In this document: one piece after another, positions 6,422 to 64,000 of the stretch
Numbering within the stretch: position 1 is the first letter of the stretch
Layout: each line of letters begins with the position of its first letter
NCBI GenBank assembly: GCA_951406725.2
Contig: OX597821.1
Location: 27,590,001 to 27,654,000, forward strand
DNA length: 64,000 bases
Direction: 5' to 3'
Source of the DNA: Octopus vulgaris
Lineage: Eukaryota
Made by a program: the position numbers and the translations under genes
Notes under the pieces: model-generated
Database searches by the model: none
What the model was told of the DNA's origin: nothing
Seen by the model: the letters and a program-made list of their open reading frames with translations, nothing else

Positions 6422-6651
6422 TATAACAATAAATAAGGGTTTAGCAACAAGTTGCTTCACCACATACCGAAAATTTTAGAAATAGCAGCCAAAAGACCGC
6501 TATTTCTTTTTCTCATGAAATATGATAACAGTGTTGTTGTCTGTGGAGATATATTTTGTAGGAAAAAGAAATAGCGGTCCTGTGGCTGCTATTTCTAAAT
6601 TTTCGGTATGCGGTGAAGAAACTTGTTGCTAAACCCTTAATTATTGTTATA
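6422..6651. repeat. ~90-bp inverted repeat (foldback) with ~50-bp spacer
   Basis: 6422-6512 (tataacaat...tagaaatagcagcc...gaccgctatttctttttc) is the near reverse complement of 6562-6651. Confidence 0.85.
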
Positions 6652-12685: not shown

Positions 12686-13595
12686 GTATATATATATATT
12701 TATATACACTCATTCATGTTTAGTGAACCGGAGGAACTATAATATTTTTATAGCCATCAACGATAGTTTTTCACCTTGATGAATGGGCGAATTGTATGAT
12801 ACCGATCAAGTGGTTTTAAAGGAATTTGATTTATATGCAGCCAAATCAGACCACCAATGAACAAACGATTCAGCAGTTACATCCGTAACAACAGAGTTAA
12901 ATATTTTGTTGTTTCAAATATATGACATCGGTGTGCAGGGATTAAATCCGTGATAACTTTAATGATGCTTTATTTCTTTACTTTCGTTTATATTCGATAT
13001 TTCTTTAGCTTGTTTAATGATGTTCTCCAAAACACAAACTGTCAATCAAATATATAATGGACAAACATCAAGTATGGTAAACTATTTGGCAAAAAGGTTC
13101 CTCTGTGAATTTTAAGCTTTTCCATTACTTTCCAATGCGTATTGTATATTTGATTTCGTTTTAGAATATTTGAACTTAATGAATTTTGCTAAAAGAAGCA
13201 GCAAAATTAGAGTCTTCCTTGTACAAACAGTAATCTGCAGCCTTCCTATTTAAAGGGAAAAACTACACTGCTGCATTTCCCTCTCCTCCTCATCCTCCTA
13301 CTATTACTTATACAGCTGATGGCACCACTATACTGCTACCGCCACCATCAGCACCATAGATACTACTAACACTTTCTAAGAAATTGACCAAACATTTTGG
13401 TTTTGGGAGGCGGCAGGTCGACGACATCGACCCCAGTGCTTGAATGGTATTTATTTTATCGACCTTGGAGGGATGGAATAAAGTCAATCACAGCGAAAAT
13501 GAACTGAGAACGTAAAGTGGAACCAAATACCGCTAAGCAATTTTCCCCGGTTCGCCGCATTGCTGCGACTAATGATATCGATAATCATAATGATG

Positions 13596-13644
<49 letters not shown>

Positions 13645-13648
<4 letters not shown>

Positions 13649-14663
13649 CACAAGGAAGCTGACAAATACAAACAAGAAATCATACCACCTAATAAACATG
13701 AAGAAGAAGAAGAAGAAGATGAAGAAACAACAAAAGCTATAAAACAAATGAAATCCAAACTAAAAACAGAACAGCAACGAACCATGATAAAACGATGGCA
13801 AGAAAAGCCCCTTCATGGTAAATACTGCACTAAACTAAACGCAAAAGAAATAGACAAAGAAAAATCCCAGCAATGGTTGAGAAGCTCAGGACTCAAAGCA
13901 GAAACAGAGGGATTTTTAATTGCAGCACAAGACCAAAGCCTCCCCACCAGAAATTACCAAAAACATGTAATGAAAAGAAATATTACAAGTAACTGCAGAA
14001 TATGTGGAGATGGACAAGAAACAATAAATCATATTATCTCTAGCTGCCCAGTCCTGGCTAAGAAGGAATATATTCACAGACATGACAGAGTTGGAACCTA
14101 CATACATTGGAAGCTATGCCAACATTATGGAATAACAACAGAAAAAAGATGGTATAGGCACACACCAGAAAAGGTCACAGAAAACGAGAAAGCAACCATA
14201 CTCTGGGATATGCCGATACACACAGATAGAGAAATTAAGGCCAACAGACCAGATATAGTTGTCAGAGATCATGAAGAAAAAAAATGCTTTTTAATTGATG
14301 TATCAATACCGGCAGATGACAACGTGTCTCTAAAAGAAATGGAGAAACTCTCAAAATACAAAGACCTGGAAATAGAGGTAACTAGAATGTGGAATCTGAA
14401 AACAGAAACAATTCCTATCATAGTAGGTGCATTAGGCATGATAAAAAAATATTCAGACAAATACATAACAAAAACACCAGGACTTACAAACACATATAAC
14501 ATACAGAAAATTGCACTACTAGGCACTGCCCACATCCTACGCAGAACACTTTCCATACAATAACCATCAGAGCATCACAACAAATCACAGCACATACCCA
14601 AGGCACACAGAGCTGCGCTCGGTAGTGAAGTGAAAGCACGCTATAAAAATAAAAATAAAACTA

Positions 14664-27509: not shown

Positions 27510-28400
27510 TAAATGTCCGATTTTGAACGGAAAGTATGTTTTATTCTATCTCAACAAAGAGCAGTGCATTTATTCAAAGTATGCACCGAAATCCTTTAAC
27601 ACTATTTTGCCTTTTTATCAGTAGCTTATTTATACTGGCAGCGAAGAATTCTAGAGAGCAAGAGGTGGTGAAAACAAGAAAATCTGTTTTTGCATCTTCC
27701 TCAGATTTGAAGTGTTTTTCTTTGCAAAACGTTGTCTAATGCCTGGAAAACGTGATAAAAGTTGGTGCATGGTCTCCTGAATATGGTGGATAACAAGGTA
27801 CTTCCAAGTTCAGTACCTGTAACTTGAGTAACGTTTTCTGCACATGTGGTCGAGTATTGTTTTGCAAGAGAATTGGCCTGTCTCTGTTGACGAATCCCGG
27901 TTGTTTAATTGCAAGTTCACTCATCATTTCATCCATTTGGTTAATGTATACATTCGCTGTAATTGACCTGTGAGGTCTCATGAAGCTATAGTTGATGACC
28001 CCAGCGCTAAAGCACCAAACATACACCATTACCTTTCTTCTTTTGGTAAATATTCTTTTTTGGATTGTGGTTTGGCAATTCGTTTCTATCCACCGAAAGT
28101 ACAGGACACTTGCTATTGTTGAAGAAAACCCATCTTTTATCACACGTAACAATACGATACAAAACTGTTTCGATTTTATGCCGTGACAGCAAAGAACAGC
28201 AAGTTTCAAGACGACGTGGGGCTTGATGTGCGTTCAGTTTGTGTGATACCCACTTGTCCAGTTTCTTTATCTTGCCGATGTGTTTCAGATGGTCCAATAC
28301 TGTTGGAATCGAAAATCAAACCTTAATGCTAACTCACGCGTTTGAGATGTGTCCGCGTTCATTATAATTTCCAGCTCAGTATTATCCACCTTTGGTCTCA
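27510..28400 (-). pseudogene. Decayed mariner transposase
   Basis: Frameshifted fragments KKLDKWVSHKL (WVPHEL), RIVTCDKRWV, KVMVYVW, PILLQNNTRPHV and PPYSGDHAP (YSPDLAP). Boundaries are approximate. Confidence 0.85.
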
Positions 28401-30282: not shown

Positions 30283-31573
30283 CGAGGGACGTTCAATACG
30301 TAATGCCTCTGACCAACTTGCAGTTGTTTGATCTAGCTAAAATGTTGCATGTGCAATTATTTATATCTCTATAGATTAAGAGGCAAATTACAGTTCTGAA
30401 CACATTGTGATTTATGATTTACAGGTGTTTGAACTGAGTCAAGTGCGAAATAGAGCATGTTGATTGACGAGCAGTGATCCGGTTTTTGTATTTGAAAGGA
30501 CGTACACCACGGGATACATTTGAATTAATAAAAGTAACTTATGGTGATGATGCCCCATCATATGACCTTGTAAAACGCTGGTATCGTGAATTCAAACATA
30601 GTCGGTCTCTGTGGAAACAGTTCCCAGATCTGGTAGCCCCCCTTCTGCCATTGATGAGGCATCTGTCCGTCAAGTTAAAGCTGCCATTTTGGAAGATCGA
30701 CGCATAACTATTCGCCAAATAGCCCATGGGGTCAAGATTAATACCGGGTCTGTGGAAACTATCATTCATGACCACTTGCATATGCAAAAGGTATCTGCCA
30801 GAGGGATTCCCAGGCTGCTCACACCTTTCCAGAAGCAAGAACGCGTCGAGTGCTCGAGGATGAATTTGGAGATGTGCCAAGAAGATGAGTCAAAATTTTT
30901 CAATAGACTGATTACACAGGATGAAACCTGGGTCCATCACTATGATTCAGAGACCAAAGCCCAGTCAATGCAGTGGAAGCACCGTGACTCACCTCCTCCA
31001 AAGAAGGCAAGGGTGTAGCCCTCCGGTGGCAAGGTCATGCTCACAGTCTTCTGGGACCAGGACGGAGTAGTGATGACAGATTTCCTGGCAAAGGGTACGA
31101 CAATTACACGAGCCTATTATGCTTCACTTTTGACGAAATTAAGAGAAGCTATCAAAATCAAGAGGCGGGGGCAAGATCAGCAAAGGCATCCTCCTCCTGC
31201 AGGACAACGCTCCGGTCCACAGCACGCGTGTCACCAGATCAAAATCACAGGTGTGCGGTTATGAACCTCCTCCCCATCCCCCTACTCTCCCGGCCTTGCA
31301 CCCTCTGATTTTCACCTCTTCCCAGCCATGAAGTTATTTTTGAAAAGAAAGCGTTTCCCAGATGATGCAGCCTTGATTTCTGAAGCCACGTCGTGCTTGG
31401 AGGACCAAGCTGGGGTTTTCTAAAAAACGGTCTCCAGAGCTGCATCAAACAATGGGAGAGATGCGTAACTCTGGGTGGTTTCTATGTACACAAAGACTAA
31501 TAACTGTGCCACGTTTCGTTGCTCTACTGCTATGGGAAGTGGGTCAGGGGCATTACTTATTGAACGCCACTCG
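30283..31573 (+). mobile_element. Full-length mariner (DD34D-type) transposon with inactivated transposase
   Basis: TA|CGAGGGACGTTCAATACGTAATGCC...GGCATTACTTATTGAACGCCACTCG|TA gives imperfect TIRs and a TA TSD. Motifs: IRFLYLKG, SARGIPRLLT, ITQDETWVHHYD, LQDNAPVH, PYSPGLAPSDFHLF. Frameshifts and stops are present. Confidence 0.93.
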
Positions 31574-43127: not shown

Positions 43128-45336
43128 TACGGGAAATCAAGCTTGCAATTTAAAGATAATTTAAACTTAACTTCCCGACACAAGAAGGCCTTTTCCCCTC
43201 TGAAGGGAGAATGAACGCCTCTTAAGTAAATGGATTTATATTCTACACAAACCGATTTGTATAATCTACATCAGATTACAGATACCAATAAATTCGAGTA
43301 GATCATTGATGTTGCTTTCACAAAGTTTATCTTCGTGCGGATTTAAAATGTAAGTTCACCAATGTGTAAACACTCTTTTAGTTTCGATGGAAAATTTCCT
43401 GGAAGAGATTCTGCCACTTGCTCTAAGTCTCCCTGTTGTAGAAATGTGATACGGATGTAATAATTTGTCAAGATTTTTGGACATTTATTTGTGACCGTGC
43501 ATCTCTTCATGTCTTTCTATGGAAAAATGACCTGTATCTCTTTGCATCTCATTGAATTCAATACTCCGCTAATTTCCATAATAATTCTAAAAGCATAGGT
43601 AAATATATTTATGTTTTCTACCACAGTGTTTTAGGGACATTGGCTATTGAATCTTGATTTTTATGTTTATTAAAACTAGCTGAATAGCATGTCGATGCCG
43701 GGTAAAATGTCAGATTCCAAATCCTGTTTTCTGATTAGGTAAAATTGATTACACTTTAAAACAGTAACATCTTTCTGCAATTTTTTTCTGCAACAAATAA
43801 GTAAGAAAATCGGATTTAACGTGGAAGATTATTTCGATATAACAAATTTGAAAGTTTTGACGTAATTCTAAAATTTCACAATATGTGCCAGCCACGGGTA
43901 AGACACTACAAAAGTAGAGAGACATATAGTTATAGGACGTCGCACACACACACAAACACACGCACAAACACACACATTTACAAACAGACACACAGGCTAT
44001 CACGAGTTTAAAATGGTGTATAGCAGACATTTGTATGTATTTATGCATGTATACACGTATGCATGTATATGTATTCTCTCTCTCGCTTTGTCTCTTCTTT
44101 CACATCCCCCTTTCTTTCCCTTCCTCGACATTTTAAAAGTTAGTCATGCGTAAGTGCTTGTGTGTGTGTGTGTATGCATCTATCTATGTATTTATGAAAG
44201 TACGTATGCAGCGTCGCGTGTATATCCCTGAATGACAGCTGTATTAACGTTAACATCCCACTGCCACTCCGTGTTTGTTGCTTACACAACGCTATTCTTC
44301 CCTTCCCTGATATCAGTTACATTCAGTGTGCCACTACATTTCCCTCACGCTAATACTCAAGCACCCTTCTCATTTTATCAAAAGATATCTCACCCTCCCC
44401 TAGTGGGCCATTTATAGATTGTCATTGAAATCCAGTTAGTCTATAATTGAACTGGATTTTAGTTTAACATATATGCAAAGTTAAAGATGGTAACAGACAA
44501 ATCGTTAGATAAAACTTGTAATTTATATATAAGATACAGTGTTTGCATTACGATGAAAATTAAACAACATACTACACAAAACGGTTCATTAATGTGTGGA
44601 CAGAGAATTGGGATTCTTCTGTGTTATGTTATATAATGGGAAGAGCTACAAAATTGATTTTGATATATATATATGTTGTGTGACCAGGATACATCGTCAT
44701 ACTCTGTGGATTATAATATTTTACTCGAAAACTCAAATTGTTGGCAAGATAACTGCTATCAGCCATAGATATCGGATGCTGAATCGATGTTGGGAATGGG
44801 TTGTTTTAATCATCTATTTACGAGCATTTATAAGGTAATTACTCCTAGAAAAGCAATTTCAGAATTTTATTCTTAAATATTTTCACATCACTTATAAATT
44901 ATTGAGAAATAGAATTAATATGTGATTCATTACACATGTTCATGTATTGAAAGCCACTTAGATTGATGGCTTCTCGTCCTTATGGGGATGATTAATACGT
45001 GACGCTAATTTACTGATGCGAATCGCTCAACAAATGTTAGTCTGTCAAATTCAAAGAGTTAAATGTATTTCGAGTTATACGCTGGATTCTTATAGCTGAG
45101 ATCGTTTGATTGTGGTTGCAAATGGAATATCTATCGTTTACCTTCATTACGCCACAGTGAATTATAAATATGGCAAGATGTGAAAATTAAACAAAAATTA
45201 TTTCATATATACGGAAAAGCCAATAACAATTATAATACCAAAACTTTAACCTAGTTTGAATGAAGTCAATCAATGCGTCACTTCAGCCACAATCTGTGGA
45301 AAAATGATCTGTGTCAGTTCCATTACAAAAGTGAGG

Positions 45337-45369
45337 TTTTACGTTTCGAGCGGAGCTCTTCGTCAGAAA
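45337..45369 (-). ncRNA. Ultra-minimal hammerhead-like motif, intact core
   Basis: Minus strand: ttt CTGACGA a gagc-tcc-gctc GAAA cg TA aaa. Same sequence as the motif at 42931. Confidence 0.6.
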
Positions 45370-47680
45370 TCTCTATTTCAAACGTTCGGTTAAAAGACGC
45401 TAAAATCATGAAAATATTTTAAAACATTGAGAAAAAGTTTATATATATATATTTAAAATATTATTTAAGTGACATCTTCAGGAAATTACAAGGCAACGGT
45501 TTCTTCTGAATGATTCACTAGATATTTAATTATATTGATCATATTTACTTTTTTTTACTGACGATGTCAGCCAACGTAGCTTACTTCCCTTCGGGAAGAC
45601 TGGTGAAAATAATTCAGACATTCAAAAATATATGAAATGAAATACCAGTCTTTTAAATTGTATTACACTGAGTTAAGGATAACTACTTAGAGGAAAGACT
45701 AAGATAGATGCGTCTCTTGTAAGTTCATTCGTATATATTTTGTTACAGAGCTCACAAATGTAGATATTTGATAATATAAAGTGTAAAGAATATGGGTGAA
45801 AGTATGTTGTGAAGCTATAAAATGTAATGCGTTCTATGTCAGATATATTCTGAGGAAAATACGAGATTTCGGAAGAACGTTAATGGCAACTTATCTTGAA
45901 GTTGCTCGAATGAATTACGTAATCCTTAACTTGTTCTGTACATTCATAATGAGAATTTGCGTAACTGCTTGTGTATTATGAGTGTAGTTAGCGATTTTGA
46001 CCTTCTTTCTTGAATGTGTTGTTCCGTAGCAGAAAATCGAAAATCAAATGAAAATATGGCTGTCTACATTTTAATTGCCTACTACATATATGTTACAGCT
46101 TATCTACTTCAGAGTTCTGAGGCGATGCTGAATATAAGTATGTCTCAAGTATTAACTGGTTACCGTTAAGGAATAATTCAATGTTACATGACGTGACAAA
46201 TGTTAATATCTTCAGTATATCGTTACTGCTTCAACAGATGCACAGATACCCATCATAGTTACAGGTAATTTTGCCTTCATAATTTCACTTTGCCTTTTCG
46301 CTAGTGATGAATGTCAAATTGTTTTGTAAAATCATGACAGATTTTGTATGTATTTTTTTTCTTATTACTCAAACCTACTCAGTGTTCTTGTGTGAAATGG
46401 GGAAGCGAATAGTGCACTAATTCTTTTTCAGTTCCCAGTAAGTTCCATTTGGATTAGCCTGAATACAGTCGTTCGTGTAGTTTATGTGTTATCTACTTCA
46501 TTATTCTCCATAAATGATAAGAATACTATAGCACTATACAGTAAGATGGAAATCATAAATATTAAATAAACAACGGAAGAGAGAACGCTATAATTCAGTA
46601 ATAATTTACTGCTTTAGGCAAAAAGTAAAGTTTCATCTACCACTTATAGAGGTTAAGGTATATCATAGTGATAAGATATATGTTATATTCGGCAACAGCT
46701 ATCACTGTTTTGCGGGTTCGTACTTCAAATGACAAAGACGGCTGGTAATAATTAGACATCTTTTTAAGACATTATACCATTTAAGCAACGTAAACGTGGT
46801 TGTCCATCTGCTAGAAGTACTACCAATTCTTCCTTCACAGCTCACTTTGTAGTCGTAAACATTGTAGAATAAAATTCTTTTGCAAATAATGATGGAATAT
46901 GAAATTTTGTTTACATACGTGACCAGCGATGTCCTTGAGCGGTGCTAAATGGAAAATAAACATCTGTAATAATAATTGGCAATCTATTGATAGGTTGTTA
47001 TATGTATGAATATGTTCTACATGAACTATTTTTGTGGACGTTTGTTAGGGGAAATCACCAACGAATCACATGCTATTGTCTGCTTTGCTCGCTAACATGT
47101 AATATAATCTGGGAAATTTATATATCAAGAGGCGAAAGGATACTGGCTTTGAAAAGTACGTTACCTAGGATCAAACAACAGCATCTTGTTTTTAAAACAA
47201 TGCTTGAGAGAGTTCTATGTTCCCTTGTTATAACACTGACTCTAAACACTGAAGGCTTACAAACATTTTATTTTTTACATTTTATCGAATACGATATCAA
47301 ATACATTTTTTAATAATGAGTATTTCTAAATAGAATAACCAAAATATATACGAATGTTTATCATTGCAATTCCTTTTCACAGCACATATTAAATAAACCT
47401 TTCCTGTAATATCGCCTCTCGGATTTTAAGATGGGTTCAAATTACAAACCTATCACTTGTCAAAACTCATTTTGATTAATAACAATTAACTTTAAACTTG
47501 ATGTTCGTCTTTTCTTTCACCGATAATGATGTGGGTGTACTTATAGATGTATATTCCATGTTTATTTGCCTGTAAAATAAATTGTATACATACATATACA
47601 CGCGCGCTCACACACACAAACACCTAAGGTGGACTGTGACAGTAGTTAGCACGTCAAACTATATGTTTAGTGACATTTGT

Positions 47681-51292: not shown

Positions 51293-51329
51293 TGTCTATA
51301 TCTACCTATCTGTCTATCTATCTATCTAG

Positions 51330-51408
<79 letters not shown>

Positions 51409-51585
51409 CCTATCTACCTATCTACCTACCTATCTATCTATCTATCTATCTATATGTCTGTCTATCTATTTGTCTATCTATATGTCTGTCTATCTATCTA
51501 TCTATCTATCTATCTATATATCTATCTCTCTATCTATCTATCTACCTATCTACCTATCTACCTATCTACCTATCTACCTATCTAC

Positions 51586-51625
<40 letters not shown>

Positions 51626-51660
51626 ATGTCTGTCTATCTATTTGTCTATCTATCTGTCTG

Positions 51661-51698
<38 letters not shown>

Positions 51699-51738
51699 AA
51701 TCTATCTATCTATCAATCTATCTATCTATCTATCTATA

Positions 51739-51769
<31 letters not shown>

Positions 51770-51817
51770 TTATGTATCTATCTAGCTATCTATCTGTCTA
51801 TCTATCTATCTATCCAG

Positions 51818-51861
<44 letters not shown>

Positions 51862-52020
51862 ATGTTTGTCTGTCTGTCTGTTTGTATGCCTGTCTCTCTG
51901 TCTGCCTGCCTGTCTGTCCGTCCATCTCTCTGCGTATCTGTTCATCTGTCTGTATATCTGTCTATCCCTCTCTCTGTCTGTCTGTCAATGTATTGATCGA
52001 CCGATCTATTTGTATGTATG
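51293..52020. repeat. Long degenerate (TATC/TACC/TGTC)n array
   Basis: Read directly. It explains the YLSI-repeat ORFs. Confidence 0.95.
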
Positions 52021-52349
52021 CACTCACTCACAAACACATACACACAAGCACAGACACATACTCACAAACACATACACACAAGCACAGACACATACTCACG
52101 CACACAAACATGCACACACACACAGACACACACCTATATAGGGTATATATAACAACATCATCGTCCACTCGCAAATATCAGCGATTTTTAAATATTTTAT
52201 TTGGATCTCTAACGCGAACTGGCGTTGAAAACAAAGTTGGTACAGAAACAATTATGTATCATCGATTTTACATTAAAGTGAGCGATTAGTCCATGCGTTT
52301 GTAGAGAAAAATTTTATTATTCTCTAAAATATTATTCTCTAAGTTATGT

Positions 52350-53110
52350 TTATAAAGGGGAGATGATCTACTCCTACTATGAAACTACAACCTACAAAGA
52401 ATACACATTTTAGGAAAGGACTACATCATAGGTAGAAAACCTCTAAAGTCTATCAGCATCCTACCTGTTACCCTCGGCCTAGGATCCAGTGTCTATAAAC
52501 TGTATAGGAAATATGACGAATTCCTTCGCTTCACACATAGGCAATGCAACCACCACAAAAGTGTTCTTTAGTAAAAAAATTTAGCAAAGAACATATTTCT
52601 AATACGGTCTTTTTTTGTCTTCAAAAGGAAAAGTAATATATAGCAGCTCCATATAATGATCTCTCAGTAATAGCGGCTATAAACAACAAATCTCCCATAG
52701 TAAACGAAAAAGAACTTCTAAAACTACAAATCTAAACCATATAACATAATGACAATTCATTTGTAGAAAACATTTATCCTTCCCCATTTTAATTAATATT
52801 GCTCCTACCACAACAGTGACCAGGAATACGACACCAACTATTATCTCTAAATATATAGGATCTACAGCAAACTATTTTCAGCCAAAATACAACCAACATA
52901 CGCACACGTTTCGTAACCCAAACTAGAAAAGGATCCATGACTATCGAAACTTATACGGACATTAAAATCAAAAGTACATTGTTTAGCATCATTTTGAAAA
53001 TACTCTCACACGTACTTCCACAACACGGTAACAGCAAATCATTCCAGCCTTGTACCATATTTTCATATTGTAGAGCCAAATTCTTAACCGACACTGAGAA
53101 CTAAGAAATA
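52350..53110 (+). pseudogene. Old decayed Penelope-like element (thumb/GIY-YIG remnant)
   Basis: From 52852: YIGSTANYFQPKYNQHTHTFRNPN*, matching [22 protein letters not shown] of the young element. Boundaries are approximate. Confidence 0.6.
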
Positions 53111-54090
53111 TCAGAGATAAAAAGTAATAAAGACAAAAATATTTGAAACCAATAGAATTTTCTAACCACTTAAAATATCTCGCCCGCTTCTCTCTATTTA
53201 TCTTTACCGTAAAATATCTTCACCATCTACATAGGAATTTTTTTACGGCTTCAGAGAAACCAAGAGCTTAATAATTATCTACGACTTCCCAAATCTCCAT
53301 CAAATATCTCTCCCAAATATTTTCTACATAAGTCGTACATCAGATAAACATATATTTATGCAAACAAGAAAAGGATGCTTTTGTTTTTCATTCCCTTTTT
53401 TTAAATTTAATATCTGAAAATGTTTTAAATTTGTTAATATTTAGACTTATTTGAAAATTGAATTATATTTTCATTCCTATTTTTACACATGAGCACATAC
53501 GCAGTTACTTACAATACCCCATTTTCACATATATCCGTAGGCATAACATAATATATTATATAATGCCCATTGTAAAGGCGGTGTTCCAGCATGGCCGCAG
53601 TCAAAATGACTGAAACAAATAAAATAGAGTAAAAGAGTAAGAGTCTAGGAGAAACAGAAGTTAAGAAATTTCTATATACACATACGGCACAGCGGTTAAA
53701 ATTTCTATAAAATTATCCTATTTCTTATAGAACAACGAACCCATAGAGAGAACGACGTTTAGACCTACCCATATCTTCTTGTAAACATCAAAGCACACGA
53801 TAAGTAAGTTTCCATATAAGCAACACCTTGATATGCTCGACTAAAAGCATACAACTTTCAAATATAAACAGGAAACATGCTAAATAACGTGTAAAGGAAC
53901 TTATTGACCTGCAAAACACATACCTCCTATTAATATTATCTTGTGGTGCTCTAAAAATAAAATTACAGAAAATAAGAGCTGACACACATAGTTACTAGGT
54001 TTTCAAATGCTAGACTAAATGTTGGTCTTTGAAATGTATATTGCCAAAGTAAATATTAAATTCAATAAAAGAAAAACTATAAAGAATTCC

Positions 54091-54495
54091 GGATCTTTTC
54101 GGTTTGAATGGCAGTTTTTTCTAGCGGTGTCATATGAAATTGTCACCCTAGTATCGATCTATTGCATTTCAATATCTTTTAGGGTTAGGGTTAGGGTCAG
54201 GGATGGGGGAAGGGTATTTTTTCTTCACAAATGTAAACAAACCCAATCTGTTCCTTAAACGAGGGACATATTCATACGGCACAGAATACTTTGTAACTCA
54301 ATAGACGTCACTGATTGGTTGAAATTGCAGAAATAGAAGAAAAACAAAACAAATATCTTACAAACTATAGAATGTTCCCAATAAAGCCAAGAGAAAAAGA
54401 TGTTTTATAAACACATTCTACCAGTATACGGAGTTCTAAATTTTTTAGTTACCTAGAAGTTATGTTAAAAACTGCCGTTCAAACCGAAAAGATCC
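54091..54495 (+). mobile_element. MITE (GGATCTTTTCGG TIR family)
   Basis: TIRs, TSD agaattcc/aaaattcc, internal TTAGGG. Confidence 0.9.
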
Positions 54496-54950
54496 AAAAT
54501 TCCTAATGACACGTACGCTGAATAAGCATCCCTCTACCTACTTCAATTTTGTGAACATTTTGTCCAAAAATCTCCTGAGCTGGAGCTGATATAACTAAAG
54601 ATATAAACATTATTTAGAAAGTTCTACACGCATGAATAACTTCCAAAAAATAGAATGAGGCAAAAACAAATTAATTAAAATTTCTCTAGCACACCTATCC
54701 ATCACAATCAGCCTTAAAACCTAATTACCAATGAAAAGACTCACAGAAACCACAGTGGAATCTATTTCAGACCAAGATAAACTTTATGCTTCACCGTCAG
54801 ATGATGGATTAGTTGGTGGAAAATTCGAAGTTATTCGAAGTTATATCCTCGTTAAGTATTAGTAAATCTGTATATACGTACGTACTTATCTATGTATGTA
54901 TGCACGTATATGTATGTACGTGTGCGTCCGTGTGTGTGTGTGTGTGTGTG

Positions 54951-55208
54951 TTTCCCGGTTTCTGTGGCATATGTTCCCCCCAGCTGGACGGGAGGTCAGT
55001 CCATCTCAGCGTTACTCAAGAAACAGGAAGACAGGGTGAGAGAAAGTTGTGGCGAAAAAGTACAATAGGCCCCCACCCCTGACGGAGCCTCGTGGAGCTT
55101 TTAGTTGTTTTTTCGCTAAATAAACACACACAACACCCGGTCTGGGAATCGCAACTGCGATCCTCGACCGCGAGTCCGCTGCCCTAACCACTGGGCCATT
55201 GCGCCTCC
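54951..55208 (-). mobile_element. tRNA-derived SINE
   Basis: Minus head ggaggcgcaatggcccagtggttagggcagcggactcgcggtcgaggatcgcagttgcgattccc (A box, degenerate B box), ending in (CA)n. Confidence 0.75.
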
Positions 55209-55230
55209 AAATAATAATAATAATAATAAT

Positions 55231-55265
<35 letters not shown>

Positions 55266-55332
55266 GGTCCCGGGTTGATTCGGGGTTAACCACAGTAAGT
55301 AAGGTACTCAATACATAGCAGAGTAAAATTAA

Positions 55333-55774
55333 TTTATTATATAGAAGGAGCTTCTACAGGACTAGTACTGTTTCATTCAAGAGAAATCTTCAGGAAGCTA
55401 TTTAACAAGAATTGTATTAGCATTTATACATTTAGGCAGGTTTAAAGGAGTGGTGGTGGGGGACTTTTTGGGGGTAGGCATAGCGCAAAATATCATACTT
55501 GGGGGAGTGGTCAAGGAGTCAGTGGTAAGTTAGATGAAAGAATAGATAAATAAAAAAATAAAAAAATAAAAAATAAAAAAATAAAATAAAAAAATAAAAA
55601 ATATAAAAAATATATATAAAAAAAATATATATAAAATATATATATAAAAAAATATATATATAAAAAAAGGGGGGATAGAGTTATAGGTAAATAAGGAGAT
55701 TCTCACTTATACCTATACACACATATATACGTATCTACACACACATACATACATACACATATATCTACACACAC

Positions 55775-55805
<31 letters not shown>

Positions 55806-55974
55806 CATATATATACATATACATATGTACACACATACATACATATCTACATACACACATACATACACCCGCCCACATATACAAATTTATACACATGCAC
55901 ATGCCTATACCTGTCTACACATACACACACGTATATATGCATACACTCACTCCCATGCATGCACGCATACACAC

Positions 55975-56009
<35 letters not shown>

Positions 56010-56711
56010 CACGACCACACATACATATATACACATAAAAAAATATATATTCATACGCACATACACTCATGCACACACAACACACCTAGTTCCCTATATA
56101 CACATATTTACACCTATATATACATACACCCACATACACCTATGTACACATATATATATATAAACATATACACGCATACATATATATACATGTGTGCACA
56201 TACATACATACACACATATATACATACACATACACATACACATGTGTACCTATACATACCTACACATACACACATACATACATACAAATATACATATACA
56301 TATATATATATACACACCAATACAGGCCCATTCCCTAATTTTAATTTTATTATCTTCATTTATTACTTTTGTTATCTTTGATCGCTAGGGCTAAGAATCC
56401 TGGCAATGGCTGCTTGTCCATTTGTCTGTCTACTAGAAGGCAAGTACTCATTCCCGCACGCACACTCATTAGCACGTACATTCACCCATTCGTACACTCA
56501 TACACATACACGTACGCACGCGTTATATTCATACATACAAACATCTACATACGTTCACGTATATACACATACGTACTCGTACCTACAGATTCGTGTCTAC
56601 ACTTTAGGAGGCTAGTCTATACATATACACCAATAAATATACATATATACATATATATACCCGCATATACATACACACACACACATATATACTCCTACAT
56701 ACAGATACATA

Positions 56712-56751
<40 letters not shown>

Positions 56752-57243
56752 CATACACATACACACATACATATACACACACATATACATACACATATAT
56801 ATATACACAAACATATATACACACATATATATATACATACACACATACACACATACATACGTATACATACATACATACATCCATACATCCATACTTACAT
56901 GCATTTATACGCATACACACACCCATCTATATATATGTATATATATATATATATATATATACACACTCACACATACATATACAAATCTACGCACACACAT
57001 ACATACATACACGTATACGCATACACGCACATACACATATACATGCGTACCCATACACGTGCACACACGCACGCGCATCCATATATATACACACACACAC
57101 ATATGTATACACGTGTGCAAGCATACATACATACTCATACGCGCACACATACTTACAAATACATATATGCACACACTTACACACATATATATACATACAC
57201 ATATACATGCATACATACATATATGCATACATACACACACGCA

Positions 57244-57289
<46 letters not shown>

Positions 57290-57348
57290 TATATACATAT
57301 ATAGATATATATACACATACATACACATACACATACATACACACATAT

Positions 57349-57393
<45 letters not shown>

Positions 57394-57519
57394 TACATAT
57401 ATACACATATACATACATATACATACACACACACATACATATATACATATACACATATACACATACCCATACATACACATGCATATACTTATATCACTAC
57501 ATACTCACATATATAAACA
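55333..57519 (-). repeat. Left arm of the ~2.2-kb inverted repeat (inverted pLTR copy)
   Basis: Reverse complement of 60190-62402, including unique islands (e.g. gatcgctagggctaagaatcctggcaatggc). The ORF track shows mirrored translations (56369+ vs 61364-; 56899+ vs 60802-). Confidence 0.95.
55349..55399 (-). ncRNA. Type I hammerhead ribozyme (left arm)
   Basis: Exact reverse complement of 62336-62386. Confidence 0.8.
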
Positions 57520-59128
57520 GCTACTTCACCCTGAAGGACCACAAAGACCATTTCGAAAATAAACCGTCGGTCCGTTTGATTAACCCAACCAAGTCTGACA
57601 TCGGATCCGTCAGCAAGAAGATCTTGGACAGGATTTTACCAAAATGCGTGAAGCTTCACCCTTCCACTCTGGAATAGGACCTCCGAGGCAATAACTTGGT
57701 TCCGGGATTTACCAGATAAAAGCAACACCCGATTCCTACAACTGGATATCGAGGATTACTACGCCTCTATATCGGAGAGCTTGCTGATCGATGCGATTAA
57801 CTTCGCCAGGAGGTCCTCCACCATCACCGAGGCCGAGCAAGATGTGATCCTCCACGCACGTAAGACTTTTCTTTTCTATGACGGATCCCACTGGATCAAC
57901 AAAAAATCTGTGACCCCCTTCGACGTCAGCATGGGTGCTAACGACTCTGCTGAAATAAGTGACCTAGTGGGCCTTTTCATCCTCCATAGGCTGAAAACCC
58001 TATTCACAGCCTCTCCGGTGGTCTTTACCGAGATGACGGCCTTTTCGCCCTCCACAATATAAACCCCAGGACCACGGATGGGTTCCGGAAAAATCTTCAC
58101 ACCTTCTTTAAAAACTTAGGCCTTAGGATTACCCTAGAATCCAACTTAACTAAGGCTAACTTCCTAGATGTCACCCTCGACTTAAAAACCTCACTTTATT
58201 ACCCGTACCACAAACCAAATGAATCCCTTAGATATATAGATATCAATTCCAACCACCCCAGAAATATATTAGATAACCTAGTAAAAAGTGTCTCAATTAG
58301 AATCTCTAGCCTGTCCGCCACGGAAGATATCTTTAAGGCCGCAGCCCCCTATTACAACGAGGCCCTGGCCCGCAGTGGTTTTAAAGATAAGATTACCTAC
58401 ACTAGTATAGCCCCACGCCAACCCAGGAAAAATAGACGAAGACACATTAGCTGGTACAACCCCCCTTCAACCGTGAGGTCGCTACACCTGTAGCTAAGAT
58501 CTTTTTCACTCTCCTACAGAAACACTTCCCCACCCAACATAAGTACTACACTATCCTAAATAAGAACACTATTAGACTCTCCTACTCTACCACGCCCAAC
58601 CTAGCCAGGAACCTAGCCAACAACAATGTGAAAAAACTTAACATATCTACTTTCTCCGGGGCCCATCCAACGTCCGATAGCAATTGCAACTGCCATGATA
58701 AAACCACCTGCCCCCTCAACAACAACTGCCTACAGAGGGACCTAGTATATAAATGCGAGGTAAGATCAGGCCTTGACGATAAAAGTAAATCCTACATTGG
58801 AATGACGTCAAACAGCTTTAAGACCCGCTGGTATGCACATACACACTCGTTCCGGCGACAGGATAAATCCAACCAAACTACCCTCGCCGCCCACATCTGG
58901 TACCTTAAAAGGAACTCAATCCCCTTCAAGACCAAGTGGAAACTACTACAGAAGGCGCGCTCGTACACAGGAGGACATACCTGCTGTGACCTATGCATAT
59001 CAGAGAGCCTAGAGATCTTGTTCGCCAAAGGCCCTCTCCTTAACAAATTTTCAGAACACTCCCCAAATTGCATGCATAAGAAGTATGCGAACTACAAGAA
59101 CTATAGACCTACCCGGCAACCTGATTGA
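57520..59128 (+). CDS. Penelope-like reverse transcriptase + C-terminal GIY-YIG endonuclease (5'-truncated, about four frameshifts)
   Basis: Joined frames: [65 protein letters not shown] (YRDD 58026-58037), [18 protein letters not shown], CNCx5CPLx3C, VYKC...YIGMT...FKTRW..H, CDLCISE, LLNK..E...CMH. Confidence 0.92.
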
Positions 59129-59367
59129 TGACAACCCCCCCCTACAACCCCCCCCCTACAACCCCCCCAACCCCACTGTTCCCCTAGCACCCCCGATTAC
59201 CTTTTCTCCTAAGACCTTTCACATATTATATGTGCACGCTTGTATATGTGTATCGTATGTATGTATGTATATATGTATAGAAATGCATGGGTACAGTAGG
59301 AATATACGCATGTATTATGTGTGTGTGTGTGTATGTATGCATGTAAAAATATATATGTATATATATT

Positions 59368-59412
<45 letters not shown>

Positions 59413-59780
59413 GCTTGTATGTGTGTGTGTGTGTATATGTGTATATGTGTTTGTATGTATATGTGTATATATGTATATGCATATGTATGTGTAAATGTAT
59501 GTGCTTATGTATGTGTATGTATGTATAAAATATTATATAATTAGGGCTTAGGAAAATAAAATAAATTACTTTGCCACATACTAAACTTTCTAGAAATAGC
59601 AGCCAATAAAGTTTTTAGCCTCTTCCACTACTTAGAGAATTTTTTTCCCTCTAACATTGTTTACTCAAAATAATAATGGTCCCTTTACATACTGAACACT
59701 TGATGAAATTGATTAATAACTAATTAACTTTACCCTCCCTTGTTGATATATATATACATATGTATATGTGTACATGTATG

Positions 59781-59813
<33 letters not shown>

Positions 59814-60189
59814 ATGTGTGTATGTATGTATTTGTATATGTGTGTGTATATGTATGTGTGCGCGTGTGTGTGTATGTATGTGTATGTATACTTGTATATG
59901 TATATGCATGAATGTATATATATGTGTGTGTATATGTGTATTATGTATGTATTTATATAGATATGTAGTTTATATATATATATATGTATGTATATGCATC
60001 TGTCTGTGTGTGTGTATGTGTATATATGTGTATCATTTTTGCGTATGTATACATGTATATGTGTATATGTATGTGTGTGTGTGTGTGTATGTATATATAT
60101 ATATATATATTTGTATATATATGTATATACATATATATGCATACGTATGTGTATGTACATGTATATATGTATGTGTGTATATGTATATA

Positions 60190-60315
60190 TGTTTATATAT
60201 GTGAGTATGTAGTGATATAAGTATATGCATGTGTATGTATGGGTATGTGTATCAGTGTATATGTATATATGTATGTGTGTGTGTATGTATATGTATGTAT
60301 ATGTGTATATATGTA

Positions 60316-60350
<35 letters not shown>

Positions 60351-60413
60351 GTGTATATGTGTGTATGTATGTGTATGTGTATGTATGTGTATATATATCT
60401 ATATATGTATATA

Positions 60414-60457
<44 letters not shown>

Positions 60458-60949
60458 TGCGTGTGTGTATGTATGCATATATGTATGTATGCATGTATAT
60501 GTGTATGTATATATATGTGTGTAAGTGTGTGCATATATGTATTTGTAAGTATGTGTGCGCGTATGAGTATGTATGTATGCTTGCACACGTGTATATATAT
60601 GTGTGTGTGTGTATATATATGGATGCGCGTGCGTGTGTGCACGTGTATGGGTACGCATGTATATGTGTATGTGCGTGTATGCGTATACGTGTATGTATGT
60701 ATGTGTGTGCGTAGATTTGTATATGTATGTGTGAGTGTGTATATATATATATATATATATATACATATATATAGATGGGTGTGTGTATGCGTATAAATGC
60801 ATGTAAGTATGGATGTATGGATGTATGTATGTATGTATACGTATGTATGTGTGTATGTGTGTATGTATATATATATGTGTGTATATATGTTTGTGTATGT
60901 ATATATATGTGTATGTATGTGTGTGTATATGTATGTGTGTATGTGTATG

Positions 60950-61008
<59 letters not shown>

Positions 61009-62402
61009 GTATATATATAGGTATGTATCTGTATGTAGGAGTATATATGTGTGTGTGTGTATGTATATGCGGGTATATATATGTATATATGTATATTTAT
61101 TGGTGTATATGTATAGACTAGCCTCCTAAAGTGTAGACACGAATCTGTAGGTACGAGTACGTATGTGTATATACGTGAACGTATGTAGATGTTTGTATGT
61201 ATGAATATAACGCGTGCGTACGTGTATGTGTATGAGTGTACGAATGGGTGAATGTACGTGCTAATGAGTGTGCGTGCGGGAATGAGTACTTGCCTTCTAG
61301 TAGACAGACAAATGGACATGCAGCCATTGCCAGGATTCTTAGCCCTAGCGATCAAAGATAACAAAAGTAATAAATGAAGATAATAAAATTAAAATTAGGG
61401 AATGGGCCTGTATTGGTTGTATATATATATATGTATATGTATATTTGTATGTATGTATGTGTGTATGTGTAGGTATGTATAGGTACACATGTGTATGTGT
61501 ATGTGTATGTATATATGTGTGTATGTATGTATGTGCACACATGTATATATATGTATGCGTGTATATGTTTATATATATATATGTGTACATAGGTGTATGT
61601 GGGTGTATGTATATATAGGTGTAAATATGTGTATATAGGGAACTAGGTGTGTTGTGTGTGCATGAGTGTATGTGCGTATGAATATATATTTTTATGTGTA
61701 TATATGTATGTGTGGTCGTGGGTATATATATATATATATATATATATACATGTGTGTATGCGTGCATGCATGGGAGTGAGTGTATGCATATATACGTGTG
61801 TGTATGTGTAGACAGGTATAGGCATGTGCATGTGTATAAATTTGTATATGTGGGCGGGTGTATGTATGTGTGTATGTAGATATGTATGTATGTGTGTACA
61901 TATGTATATGTATATATATGTATATATATATATATATGTATATATATATGTGTGTGTAGATATATGTGTATGTATGTATGTGTGTGTAGATACGTATACA
62001 TGTGTGTATAGGTATAAGTGAGAATCTCCTTATTTACCTATAACTCTATCCCCCCTTTTTTTATATATATATTTTTTTATATATATATTTTTTATATATA
62101 TTTTTTTTTATATATATTTTTTATATTTTTTATTTTTTTATTTTATTTTTTTATTTTTTATTTTTTTATTTTTTTATTTTTTTATTTATCTATTCTTTCA
62201 TCTAACTTACCACTGACTCCTTGACCACTCCCCCAAGTATGATATTTTGCGCTATGCCTACCCCCAAAAAGTCCCCCACCACCACTCCTTTAAACCTGCC
62301 TAAATGTATAAATGCTAATACAATTCTTGTTAAATAGCTTCCTGAAGATTTCTCTTGAATGAAACAGTACTAGTCCTGTAGAAGCTCCTTCTATATAATA
62401 AA
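60190..62402 (+). repeat. Right arm of the inverted repeat (distal part of the ~3.3-kb 3' UTR/pLTR, 59129-62402)
   Basis: Reverse complement of 55333-57519. Ends in a short A-run followed by (TA)n. Confidence 0.95.
62336..62386 (+). ncRNA. Type I hammerhead ribozyme (right arm, sense to RT)
   Basis: agcttc CTGAAGA t-ttc-tctt-gaa-t GAA acag-tactagtc-ctgt A gaagct. Stem I is 6 bp, the core is CUGANGA/GAAA, and stem III is 4 bp with a palindromic ACTAGT loop. Predicted cleavage after GUA at 62380. Confidence 0.82.
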
Positions 62403-62406
62403 AAAA

Positions 62407-62534
<128 letters not shown>

Positions 62535-62708
62535 GTGCAAAGAGCAAATTAAAAACCCAAAATATGAGTACATGTTTATTTTTATTAATATTTAACGAAA
62601 GCAACATAGTTACTCAATACCTGATAGTTTCCTGCGTTGGTACCTTGATAAGTGACAACACACGATATTCTCGGACCCTGACTCGCTGTTACTTCTGCTA
62701 CATATCAG

Positions 62709-62773
<65 letters not shown>

Positions 62774-62789
62774 AACACAGTTGCAGCGA

Positions 62790-62988
62790 AAAAACCGTTA
62801 GATACACCAGAATATTTAAATTTAATTTGCGCCAAAAGATTTACGTCGTTTTGAAACCGCAACCCGTTCACTGACAAAATTTCGAGATGCACCACGAAAT
62901 GTTATCAGTAAACAGGTCACGGTTTCAATGCGACGGAAATATTTTATACAAATTAAATTTCAATGTTGAAGTTAATCTAACGGCTTTT
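62790..62988. repeat. ~200-bp imperfect palindrome (foldback/MITE-like)
   Basis: ccgttagat...aaatttaatttg...cgtcg..ttgaaaccg...ctgacaaaatttcg mirrors cgaaat...tcag...cggtttcaa..cgacg...caaattaaattt...atctaacgg about a centre near 62890. Confidence 0.8.
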
Positions 62989-63091
62989 GAATGTTTTTAA
63001 ATGACTTATAAACACCTTCCATGCTGCAATTGTTTTTGTATCACCACACAGTCGTTGATCAAGTCACTTGCTATGCAATTACATCTCCCTA

Positions 63092-63148
<57 letters not shown>

Positions 63149-63175
63149 GTATGTAGTATATTCGTATATATGGTT

Positions 63176-63206
<31 letters not shown>

Positions 63207-63211
63207 GTATG

Positions 63212-63243
<32 letters not shown>

Positions 63244-63247
63244 TGTA

Positions 63248-63317
<70 letters not shown>

Positions 63318-64000
63318 CCTGCTGGCTTAGCCAGCGGAATGGCGTCATTTAAAGGTTAAAACAATGCGAAACGCATTGTGACCAGCGATATGTAGCAACA
63401 TCTGATAGTCTGGTCGGTCACGGTAATATATATATAAATCATAAGTGCAAGCGGATACATGTGCCCGTATACATTTAGATCAATACTCATTGGAATTTAT
63501 GATTTTCACATGCACACAGATACCACACACACACACACAGATGCTGCATATATATAAATAAGTGTTTGCATATATATGTGTTTGTCTATGTGTGCGTGCT
63601 TGCTCTTGCCTGTGCACGAGTATTTATATAAACATTGCGAATTTTTACATTGGTTCATTGTATCAAATACCTTTTCTCAAACATTTGTTACACGAAATTT
63701 ATCGCACTTGACACTTGTCGAGGACATTCAAGTAATGAAGAAGGCATCACATGCGAACATGCTGCTTTTTATCTTACTGGTAAGTAATCGTATAATTATT
63801 CATTTACATGAAATTTCAATGTCACACAGGAAAATACTCAACGCTATTAAAATTCACATTTTTATGCTTTTGTCATTTATTTATTGTTTCATCTTGAATA
63901 GCTGTTATTTTGGCTGTAGTAGATAAATTAGCATATTCGAATTACTTGTTGATATTTGGGATTACCGTATTGAACTGTTTTGTCCCCATAATGTACATTA

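Follow-up and report, generated by a model that had tools for sequence, protein, structure and literature searches.

The question raised by this locus is whether several kilobases of irregular TA/TG repeat arose where they stand or were copied there as part of a retroelement, and whether such elements account for similar repeat blocks elsewhere. The window, the whole stretch of 64,000 nucleotides of Octopus vulgaris DNA that was analysed, carries this repeat in two inverted arms. Judged by its motifs, on which membership of the clade rests, the locus is a 5′-truncated Penelope-like element (PLE) of the Hydra clade together with an inverted 5′-truncated copy, the two lying between (TA)n runs. 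Its features are as follows.

55235-55262, no strand: left (TA)14 run, the likely target site, following an (AAT)9 run.
55263-55332, minus strand: 70-nt 3′ extension of the inverted copy, missing from the right arm, with a CTC...GAG motif at 55304-55324.
55333-57519, minus strand: inverted 5′-truncated copy (inverted pLTR) delimited by the arm alignment; hammerhead end and ~1.8 kb of repeat-rich cargo with islands, without the ORF.
55349-55399, minus strand: predicted type I hammerhead motif, same sequence as the right-arm copy.
57520-57522, no strand: three filler nucleotides where the inversion is joined; they agree neither with the way the arm continues nor with the upstream continuation of the ORF.
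57523-59128, plus strand: 5′-truncated Hydra-clade RT and GIY-YIG ORF (tblastn), lacking ~180 N-terminal residues and carrying four one-base deletions relative to public contigs.
59129-59234, plus strand: proximal C-rich 3′ UTR; multi-copy variants in the contigs of public run X9, and one contig of run X6 spanning 58827-59248.
59235-59525, plus strand: cryptic TG/TA tract 1, unmirrored; purine/pyrimidine alternation 0.90, C 4%.
59526-59745, plus strand: island 1, unmirrored; a 47-nt segment resembles host DNA at 6446-6492 (79%; E 6e-6 in a search of the window).
59746-61115, plus strand: cryptic TG/TA tract 2; the mirror begins at 60190, and public contigs contain the probe segment 60163-60244.
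61116-61417, plus strand: island 2, with its mirror at 56316-56617 (99.7%).
61418-62010, plus strand: cryptic TG/TA tract 3, mirrored (arm alignment).
62011-62402, plus strand: distal 3′ end with a T-rich tract, a C-rich stretch and the type I hammerhead motif at 62336-62386, predicted to be cleaved after 62380.
62411-62530, no strand: right (TA)n run, the likely target site.

Directly left of the target TA run, 55130-55237 is presumably a SINE-like fragment with the (AAT)9 run as its tail.

In tblastn searches, the ORF was co-linear with relatives of 713-759 aa from about residue 180 to the C-terminus (E 6e-111 to 1e-66). Its RT carries YRDDG, and VY...YIG lies near the C-terminus. The Hydra clade is defined in the account of PMC8557442 by a GIY-YIG endonuclease without the CCHH motif, a CxCX5C linker, CxxC and CxH on either side of a conserved E and N, and N-terminal RWK and DKT motifs. 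In the window copy, the linker between RT and endonuclease reads CNCHDKTTC (frame 58451-59128), the CCHH motif is absent with no cysteine pair between VY and YIG, and CDLC..E and LN...CMH represent CxxC and CxH around the conserved E and N. The N-terminal motifs were found in relatives of at least 600 aa (DK[TS] in 15 of 16 and the RW[KR] pattern in 5 of 16), the corresponding part being missing from the window copy. A Pfam search with three pieces of the ORF returned no RT or GIY-YIG match. Among the matches listed by near-length and exhaustive protein searches, the relatives were 32-48% identical and none came from this element's own family; a protein search for longer relatives gave no match.

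The (TA)n runs at both ends of the insertion (55235-55262 and 62411-62530) correspond to the preferred target of 26 of the 27 Hydra families listed in PMC8557442. All 27 measure 1,080-3,045 bp, and the clade is generally shorter than 3 kb (PMC8557442). This trait, descriptive rather than defining, is violated here, as the truncated copy alone (57523-62402) is 4.9 kb long. Structures described for PLEs include both one-sided tails and inverted 5′-truncated copies placed at the 5′ end (PMC8557442, PMC8969392). A non-LTR retrozyme, described as tandem non-coding units with a type I hammerhead in each (10.64898/2026.07.22.740005), was rejected on the grounds that each arm has a single hammerhead, that the arms are inverted and that an ORF is present.

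Global alignment of the left arm (55333-57519, 2,187 nt) with the reverse complement of 60190-62402 (2,213 nt), from which it is separated by 2.67 kb, gave 2,162 matches, 6 substitutions and 11 indels amounting to 64 nt. Seven indels were dinucleotide units gained or lost in TA/CA tracts, and four of these seven affected pure (TA)n runs; the largest (32 nt) lay within such a run, three others fell in A-rich runs and one was a single C. An earlier note had described the repeat at 59220-62200 as mirrored almost base for base, with differences mainly in (TA)n length. The description was broadly correct, but the extent needed revision: of the 2,981 nt flagged, the mirror holds for the 2,011 nt of 60190-62200, whereas 59220-60189, including the island at 59526-59745, occurs once in the window without a mirror partner, and the mirror continues past 62200 to 62402. 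When pure runs were collapsed, the left arm scored 0.96 of the maximum against the cargo, compared with 0.22-0.43 for eight other TA/CA blocks of the window, and the mirror therefore represents true homology. It stops at the 3′ end of the element, beyond which the flanks are unrelated.

The three cryptic tracts total 2,254 nt, or ~69% of the 3′ UTR, in TG orientation throughout and with an alternation of 0.89-0.93; C-rich, native-looking UTR halves flank the cargo on both sides. Two of 10 pairwise comparisons within the cargo clearly exceeded the shuffle maximum (c1-c3, 138 vs 123; c2b-c3, 197 vs 172) and one did so marginally (191 vs 188), a signal of higher-order tandem structure too weak to claim internal duplication.

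Near the 3′ end is a type I hammerhead, a motif predicted from its letters to be self-cleaving (62336-62386), with the core CTGAAGA and GAAA, a stem I of 6 bp, a stem III of 4 bp and a weak stem II of 3 bp. Its pattern agrees with the Hydra table of PMC8557442 and with 29 aligned relatives. Rfam did not score a hammerhead in 62300-62405 and, for 52000-64000, gave low-complexity miRNA-type matches below gathering scores among the best 150 of 221; the predicted fold was no more stable than shuffles (z 0.28). Past the hammerhead, a CTC...GAG motif was found in 24 of 33 scorable related loci, compared with 0.1% of 5,000 random 140-nt windows, and is present in the left arm but absent from the right. 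In the 12 relatives shown from these 24 (L001, L008, L019 and others), it takes the form CTC...GAG-C/T-A-C/T and sits 70-100 nt past the hammerhead start. The Hydra section of PMC8557442 does not mention this motif, which could be a cis-acting element of the tandem junction. Since the 70-nt clade-typical extension is missing from the right arm, the left arm is neither a fold-back nor an assembly copy; nor was it copied in place from the right arm, where the extension has no source. We infer that it most likely derives from an RNA template.

The distance from stop codon to hammerhead is 3,213 nt here, compared with 42-515 nt (median 131) in 43 related loci. The comparison set comprised 78 related metagenome loci, of which 72 include the C-terminus and 43 of those a strict hammerhead, several loci belonging to the same family. 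Among the 29 loci without a strict hammerhead, 14 with at least 234 nt downstream showed no cryptic tract (alternation ≤0.67); the other 15 of the 72 stop within 181 nt of the stop codon, too short to score. Because short-read contigs break at long repeats, this set is biased and long-UTR relatives may be hidden. The pattern of island 2 gave 0 matches in metagenome contigs. The apparent novelty lies in a Hydra-clade family whose UTR is at least six times as long as that of any scored relative and consists mostly of cryptic repeat. A literature search whose reach excluded most subscription papers and Repbase reports brought up no Hydra-clade element described as having a microsatellite UTR of several kilobases. 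The general concept of a retroelement carrying simple sequence repeats (SSRs) is already known, and Penelope elements with SSRs have been reported in shrimp.

The mirror by itself demonstrates copying at this single insertion only, and the family-wide claim rests on a comparison with public contigs. With the ORF as query, matches were found in contigs from 20 public runs in seven studies of one organism, and four of these runs (X12, X9, X6 and X1) were compared over 57465-59345, with 59249-59345 masked; gaps in cover there in all runs, and on the UTR in X1 and X12, are uninformative. The ORF is multi-copy with many variants (256 contigs in X12 and 1,189 in X9), and longer copies extend upstream of 57523 in X12, X1 and X6. 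All four runs carry one extra base at each of the four frame-break sites of the window ORF, so that these breaks are not the main form of the family.

At 57465-57519, equivalent to 60190-60244 of the cargo, contigs continue as the right arm does in X12 (three), X9 (two) and X6 (two). One 82-nt X6 contig matches 60163-60244 with two differences at a depth of 38.6, compared with 13-26 for the main ORF contigs. The summed depth of X9 at this probe site, 49,379, is similar to that of ORF sites and may be inflated, because short chance hits cover the probe core: in 15 Mb of simulated cryptic repeat (Markov null), at least 11 such hits (at least 31 nt and 88%) fell over the core among the matches listed. 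The best of these simulated matches to the whole 82-mer was 67/82. In X12 the probe depth was 142 vs 1,400-2,900 for the main ORF contigs, and in X1 it was nil; both runs were also uncovered on the proximal UTR from 59166. These depths are not copy numbers, they probe the cargo by one 82-nt segment, and one run may be the source of the assembly. A single X6 contig, the last 127 nt of which lay outside view, leads from the ORF to 59248 at the start of the cryptic tract, with no alternative branch among the best 20 of 99 loose ends. Among these 20 were four other inversion junctions, at which hammerhead or distal-UTR sequence is inverted onto ORF positions 58827 (X6) and 59029, 59051 and 59105 (X1). 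By eye, two of them agree with the left arm in 29 of 30 letters, and the other two are variants of the A-rich tract. The four junctions therefore tie this 3′ end to this ORF outside the window junction; X1 and X6 are RNA by guess only, and if so the junctions could be library chimeras. In the four runs, masked over 59249-59345, no contig or read was seen to connect ORF, cargo and hammerhead in another copy.

The proposal that the element took the cryptic repeat along when it was copied is supported at this locus, where the repeat sits between the stop codon and the 3′ hammerhead motif and is duplicated in an inverted arm that ends in the element's own 3′ extension, and a mid-cargo segment occurs at ORF-like contig depth in two of four public runs. 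We regard the repeat as a likely passenger of the whole family, co-linearity between loci not having been directly observed. A considerably less probable reading, which still deserves weight, is that the UTR of the family is normally short and that the cargo, a distinct repeat-rich dispersed element or a piece of host DNA, got into the UTR of a single source copy not long before this insertion; it would then have travelled here without being characteristic of the family. The UTRs of 42-515 nt in all 43 scorable relatives and the 1,080-3,045 bp of all 27 Hydra families (PMC8557442) would fit such an event, as would the native-looking C-rich halves flanking the cargo and the likeness between island 1 and the host segment 6446-6492. 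All four other junctions break inside the last 350 nt, as a short-UTR subfamily would also give. However, the X6 contig passes from the ORF to 59248 with no other branch among the best 20 of 99 loose ends, and the cargo probe in X6 and X9 has a depth similar to or above that of the ORF, as expected of a more 3′ part in a 5′-truncated family.

If the long UTR is indeed family-wide, part of the DNA masked as simple repeat in microsatellite-rich animal genomes would be the truncated 3′ end of an active retroelement, with effects on repeat annotation, PLE copy counts and microsatellite marker design. The earlier note went further and proposed that PLE pLTRs may spread the complex TA/CA blocks of this genome, naming similar blocks at 16.7-17.07, 37.4-37.65 and 63.1-63.3 kb. 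These blocks exist, but they resemble the cargo in composition only. Their alignment scores (156, 105 and 82) stayed below the maxima of 30 unit-shuffles each (165, 122 and 89). Two of the eight outside blocks, at 35.0 and 12.6 kb, exceeded the shuffle maximum (87 vs 79 and 73 vs 65), with longest exact matches of 20-21 nt. No hammerhead motif was found in or adjoining the 16.7 and 37.4 kb blocks, and the scan outside the element gave only 34150, where stem II is not clear, and 45366, neither beside a named block. The latter is the core of a separate minimal type I hammerhead-like motif on the minus strand (~45320-45375; core CTGACGA, stem II GAGC/GCTC), unlinked to the element. Apart from the 47-nt match of island 1 (79%, 6446-6492), no island or distal-end sequence was found elsewhere in the window, and no nested hammerhead motif or nested insertion was found in the cargo.

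The element accounts for 3,586 of the window's 7,028 bases in alternating purine/pyrimidine blocks. Its 7.1-kb insertion holds 15 pure (TA)≥8 runs compared with 35 in the remaining 56.9 kb, a density 3.4 times that of the background, and by adding these runs it could seed targets. It is tempting to see in a TA-targeting Hydra-clade PLE with a 3-kb repeat-filled UTR a self-feeding microsatellite pump, in which most 5′-truncated copies would be ORF-less TG/TA blocks annotated as simple repeats, each adding (TA)n targets, and such families would make up a measurable share of the genome's cryptic microsatellite DNA; we consider this improbable. Still harder to sustain is the stronger version, in which the majority of the genome's complex TA/CA blocks would stem from this family or from similar PLEs, and the family would promote its own proliferation through the targets it seeds. 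The share of alternating bases and the (TA)≥8 density just given speak for it, together with the (TA)n preference of 26 of 27 Hydra families (PMC8557442) and the TE-borne SSR expansion reported in shrimp (PMC7878876) and snakes (PMC6050309). Set against this are the three named blocks, none of which exceeded its shuffle maximum, the low scores of the two outside blocks that did, the absence elsewhere in the window of island or distal-end sequence other than the 47-nt match, and a cargo without a hammerhead motif. The window data thus give no support to the cargo as an explanation of the genome's repeat load, and the family likely carries some such blocks without having given rise to the majority of them.

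That the mirror arose by local inverted duplication, or as an artefact of assembly or of long-read fold-back, with no link to retrotransposition, can practically be dismissed: the four one-base ORF deletions, absent from public contigs and mostly in short homopolymer runs, resemble consensus errors and so mark the assembly as imperfect here, and no contig across the 57519/57523 junction was among the best 32 of 1,485 pieces, but arms lying 2.67 kb apart differ by 6 bases, the mirror terminates at the element's 3′ end, 70 element-type bases of the left arm lack a right-arm source, and inverted 5′-truncated copies and one-sided tails are known in PLEs (PMC8557442).

In the retrotranspositional reading, the insertion would follow the course given for PLEs, in which the GIY-YIG domain nicks and target-primed reverse transcription ensues (PMC8557442). 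The nuclease would have nicked a (TA)n run, and the RT would have primed twice at the RNA 3′ end, once per strand. One cDNA of 4.9 kb would have reached into the ORF, while the second, begun 70 nt further 3′, would have halted after 2.26 kb within the repeat, and the two would have been joined head to head via three filler bases. By eye, the 5′ truncation at 57523 falls in the loop of a hairpin with a perfect 10-bp stem: in three runs, the sequence by which contigs extend upstream is complementary to 57523-57532. The hairpin may be an RT pause or fold-back site. The cargo would probably have been captured or accreted in a master copy from ordinary repeat-rich host DNA, and the match of island 1 to 6446-6492 hints at a host origin rather than the reverse. 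Once swollen to ~3.3 kb by the cryptic TA/TG repeat, the 3′ UTR would be copied by reverse transcription at each insertion. Because reverse transcription starts from the 3′ end and in most cases terminates early, many of the insertions would consist of a hammerhead end with TG/TA repeat, and any shorter than ~3.3 kb would lack the ORF.

Compared with known systems, the element shares with the Hydra-clade PLEs described by Craig et al. 2021 (PMC8557442), such as Hydra-1_Obim and Penelope-13_HM, the C-terminal GIY-YIG domain without CCHH, the CxCX5C linker and CxxC/CxH. The same-pattern 3′ type I hammerhead, the (TA)n target and a one-sided tail are also common to both, and an inverted 5′-truncated copy at the 5′ end is found here and in Penelope-13_HM. 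The Hydra families listed there have the hammerhead near the stop codon and measure 1,080-3,045 bp, whereas here it lies 3,213 nt away in a UTR that is ~69% cryptic repeat. Judged by eye, the family differs from Hydra-1_Obim, and the tail is 70 nt long, compared with 30-40 bp described for Naiads. The SSR-carrying Penelope of Litopenaeus vannamei (Yuan et al. 2021, PMC7878876) likewise has recently transposed copies whose internal SSRs are syntenic and vary in length once the copy is in place; its passages on these elements do not state SSR position or clade, whereas here kilobases of compound cryptic repeat are mapped between stop codon and hammerhead. With its mapped cargo boundaries, unique islands and hammerhead tag, the locus offers a concrete system for the question raised by the shrimp work of how TEs carry SSRs. 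Snake CR1-L3 and Rex LINEs (PMC6050309) also spread simple repeats near their own 3′ ends, but as single-motif tails with a genome-wide enrichment test, while the repeat here is internal and compound. PLE transduction and Terminons (PMC6431247) likewise carry along additional DNA, kilobases in length, that lies between terminal repeats or upstream of a 3′ hammerhead; their cargo consists of genes or ORFs, and Terminons attach at telomeres, in contrast to the non-coding repeat of this endonuclease-bearing, TA-targeting element.

Other repeats were observed in the window. An imperfect 200-nt palindrome (76%) at 62790-62988 lies between two TA runs and is MITE-like, and short non-repetitive segments between TA runs at 62531-62710 and 63315-63430 are possibly ends of other TA-targeting elements. 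The ORF fragments at 27736-28315 (minus strand) and 30602-31018 (plus strand) contain motifs that we take to be those of mariner-type transposases. At 13508-14563, the ORF of a non-LTR retrotransposon is represented by its C-terminal portion, which includes a zf-RVT domain and has best relatives that are 92% and 78% identical. Finally, a 690-nt degenerate (TATC/TGTC)n array at 51299-51986 belongs to a repeat class distinct from the cargo.
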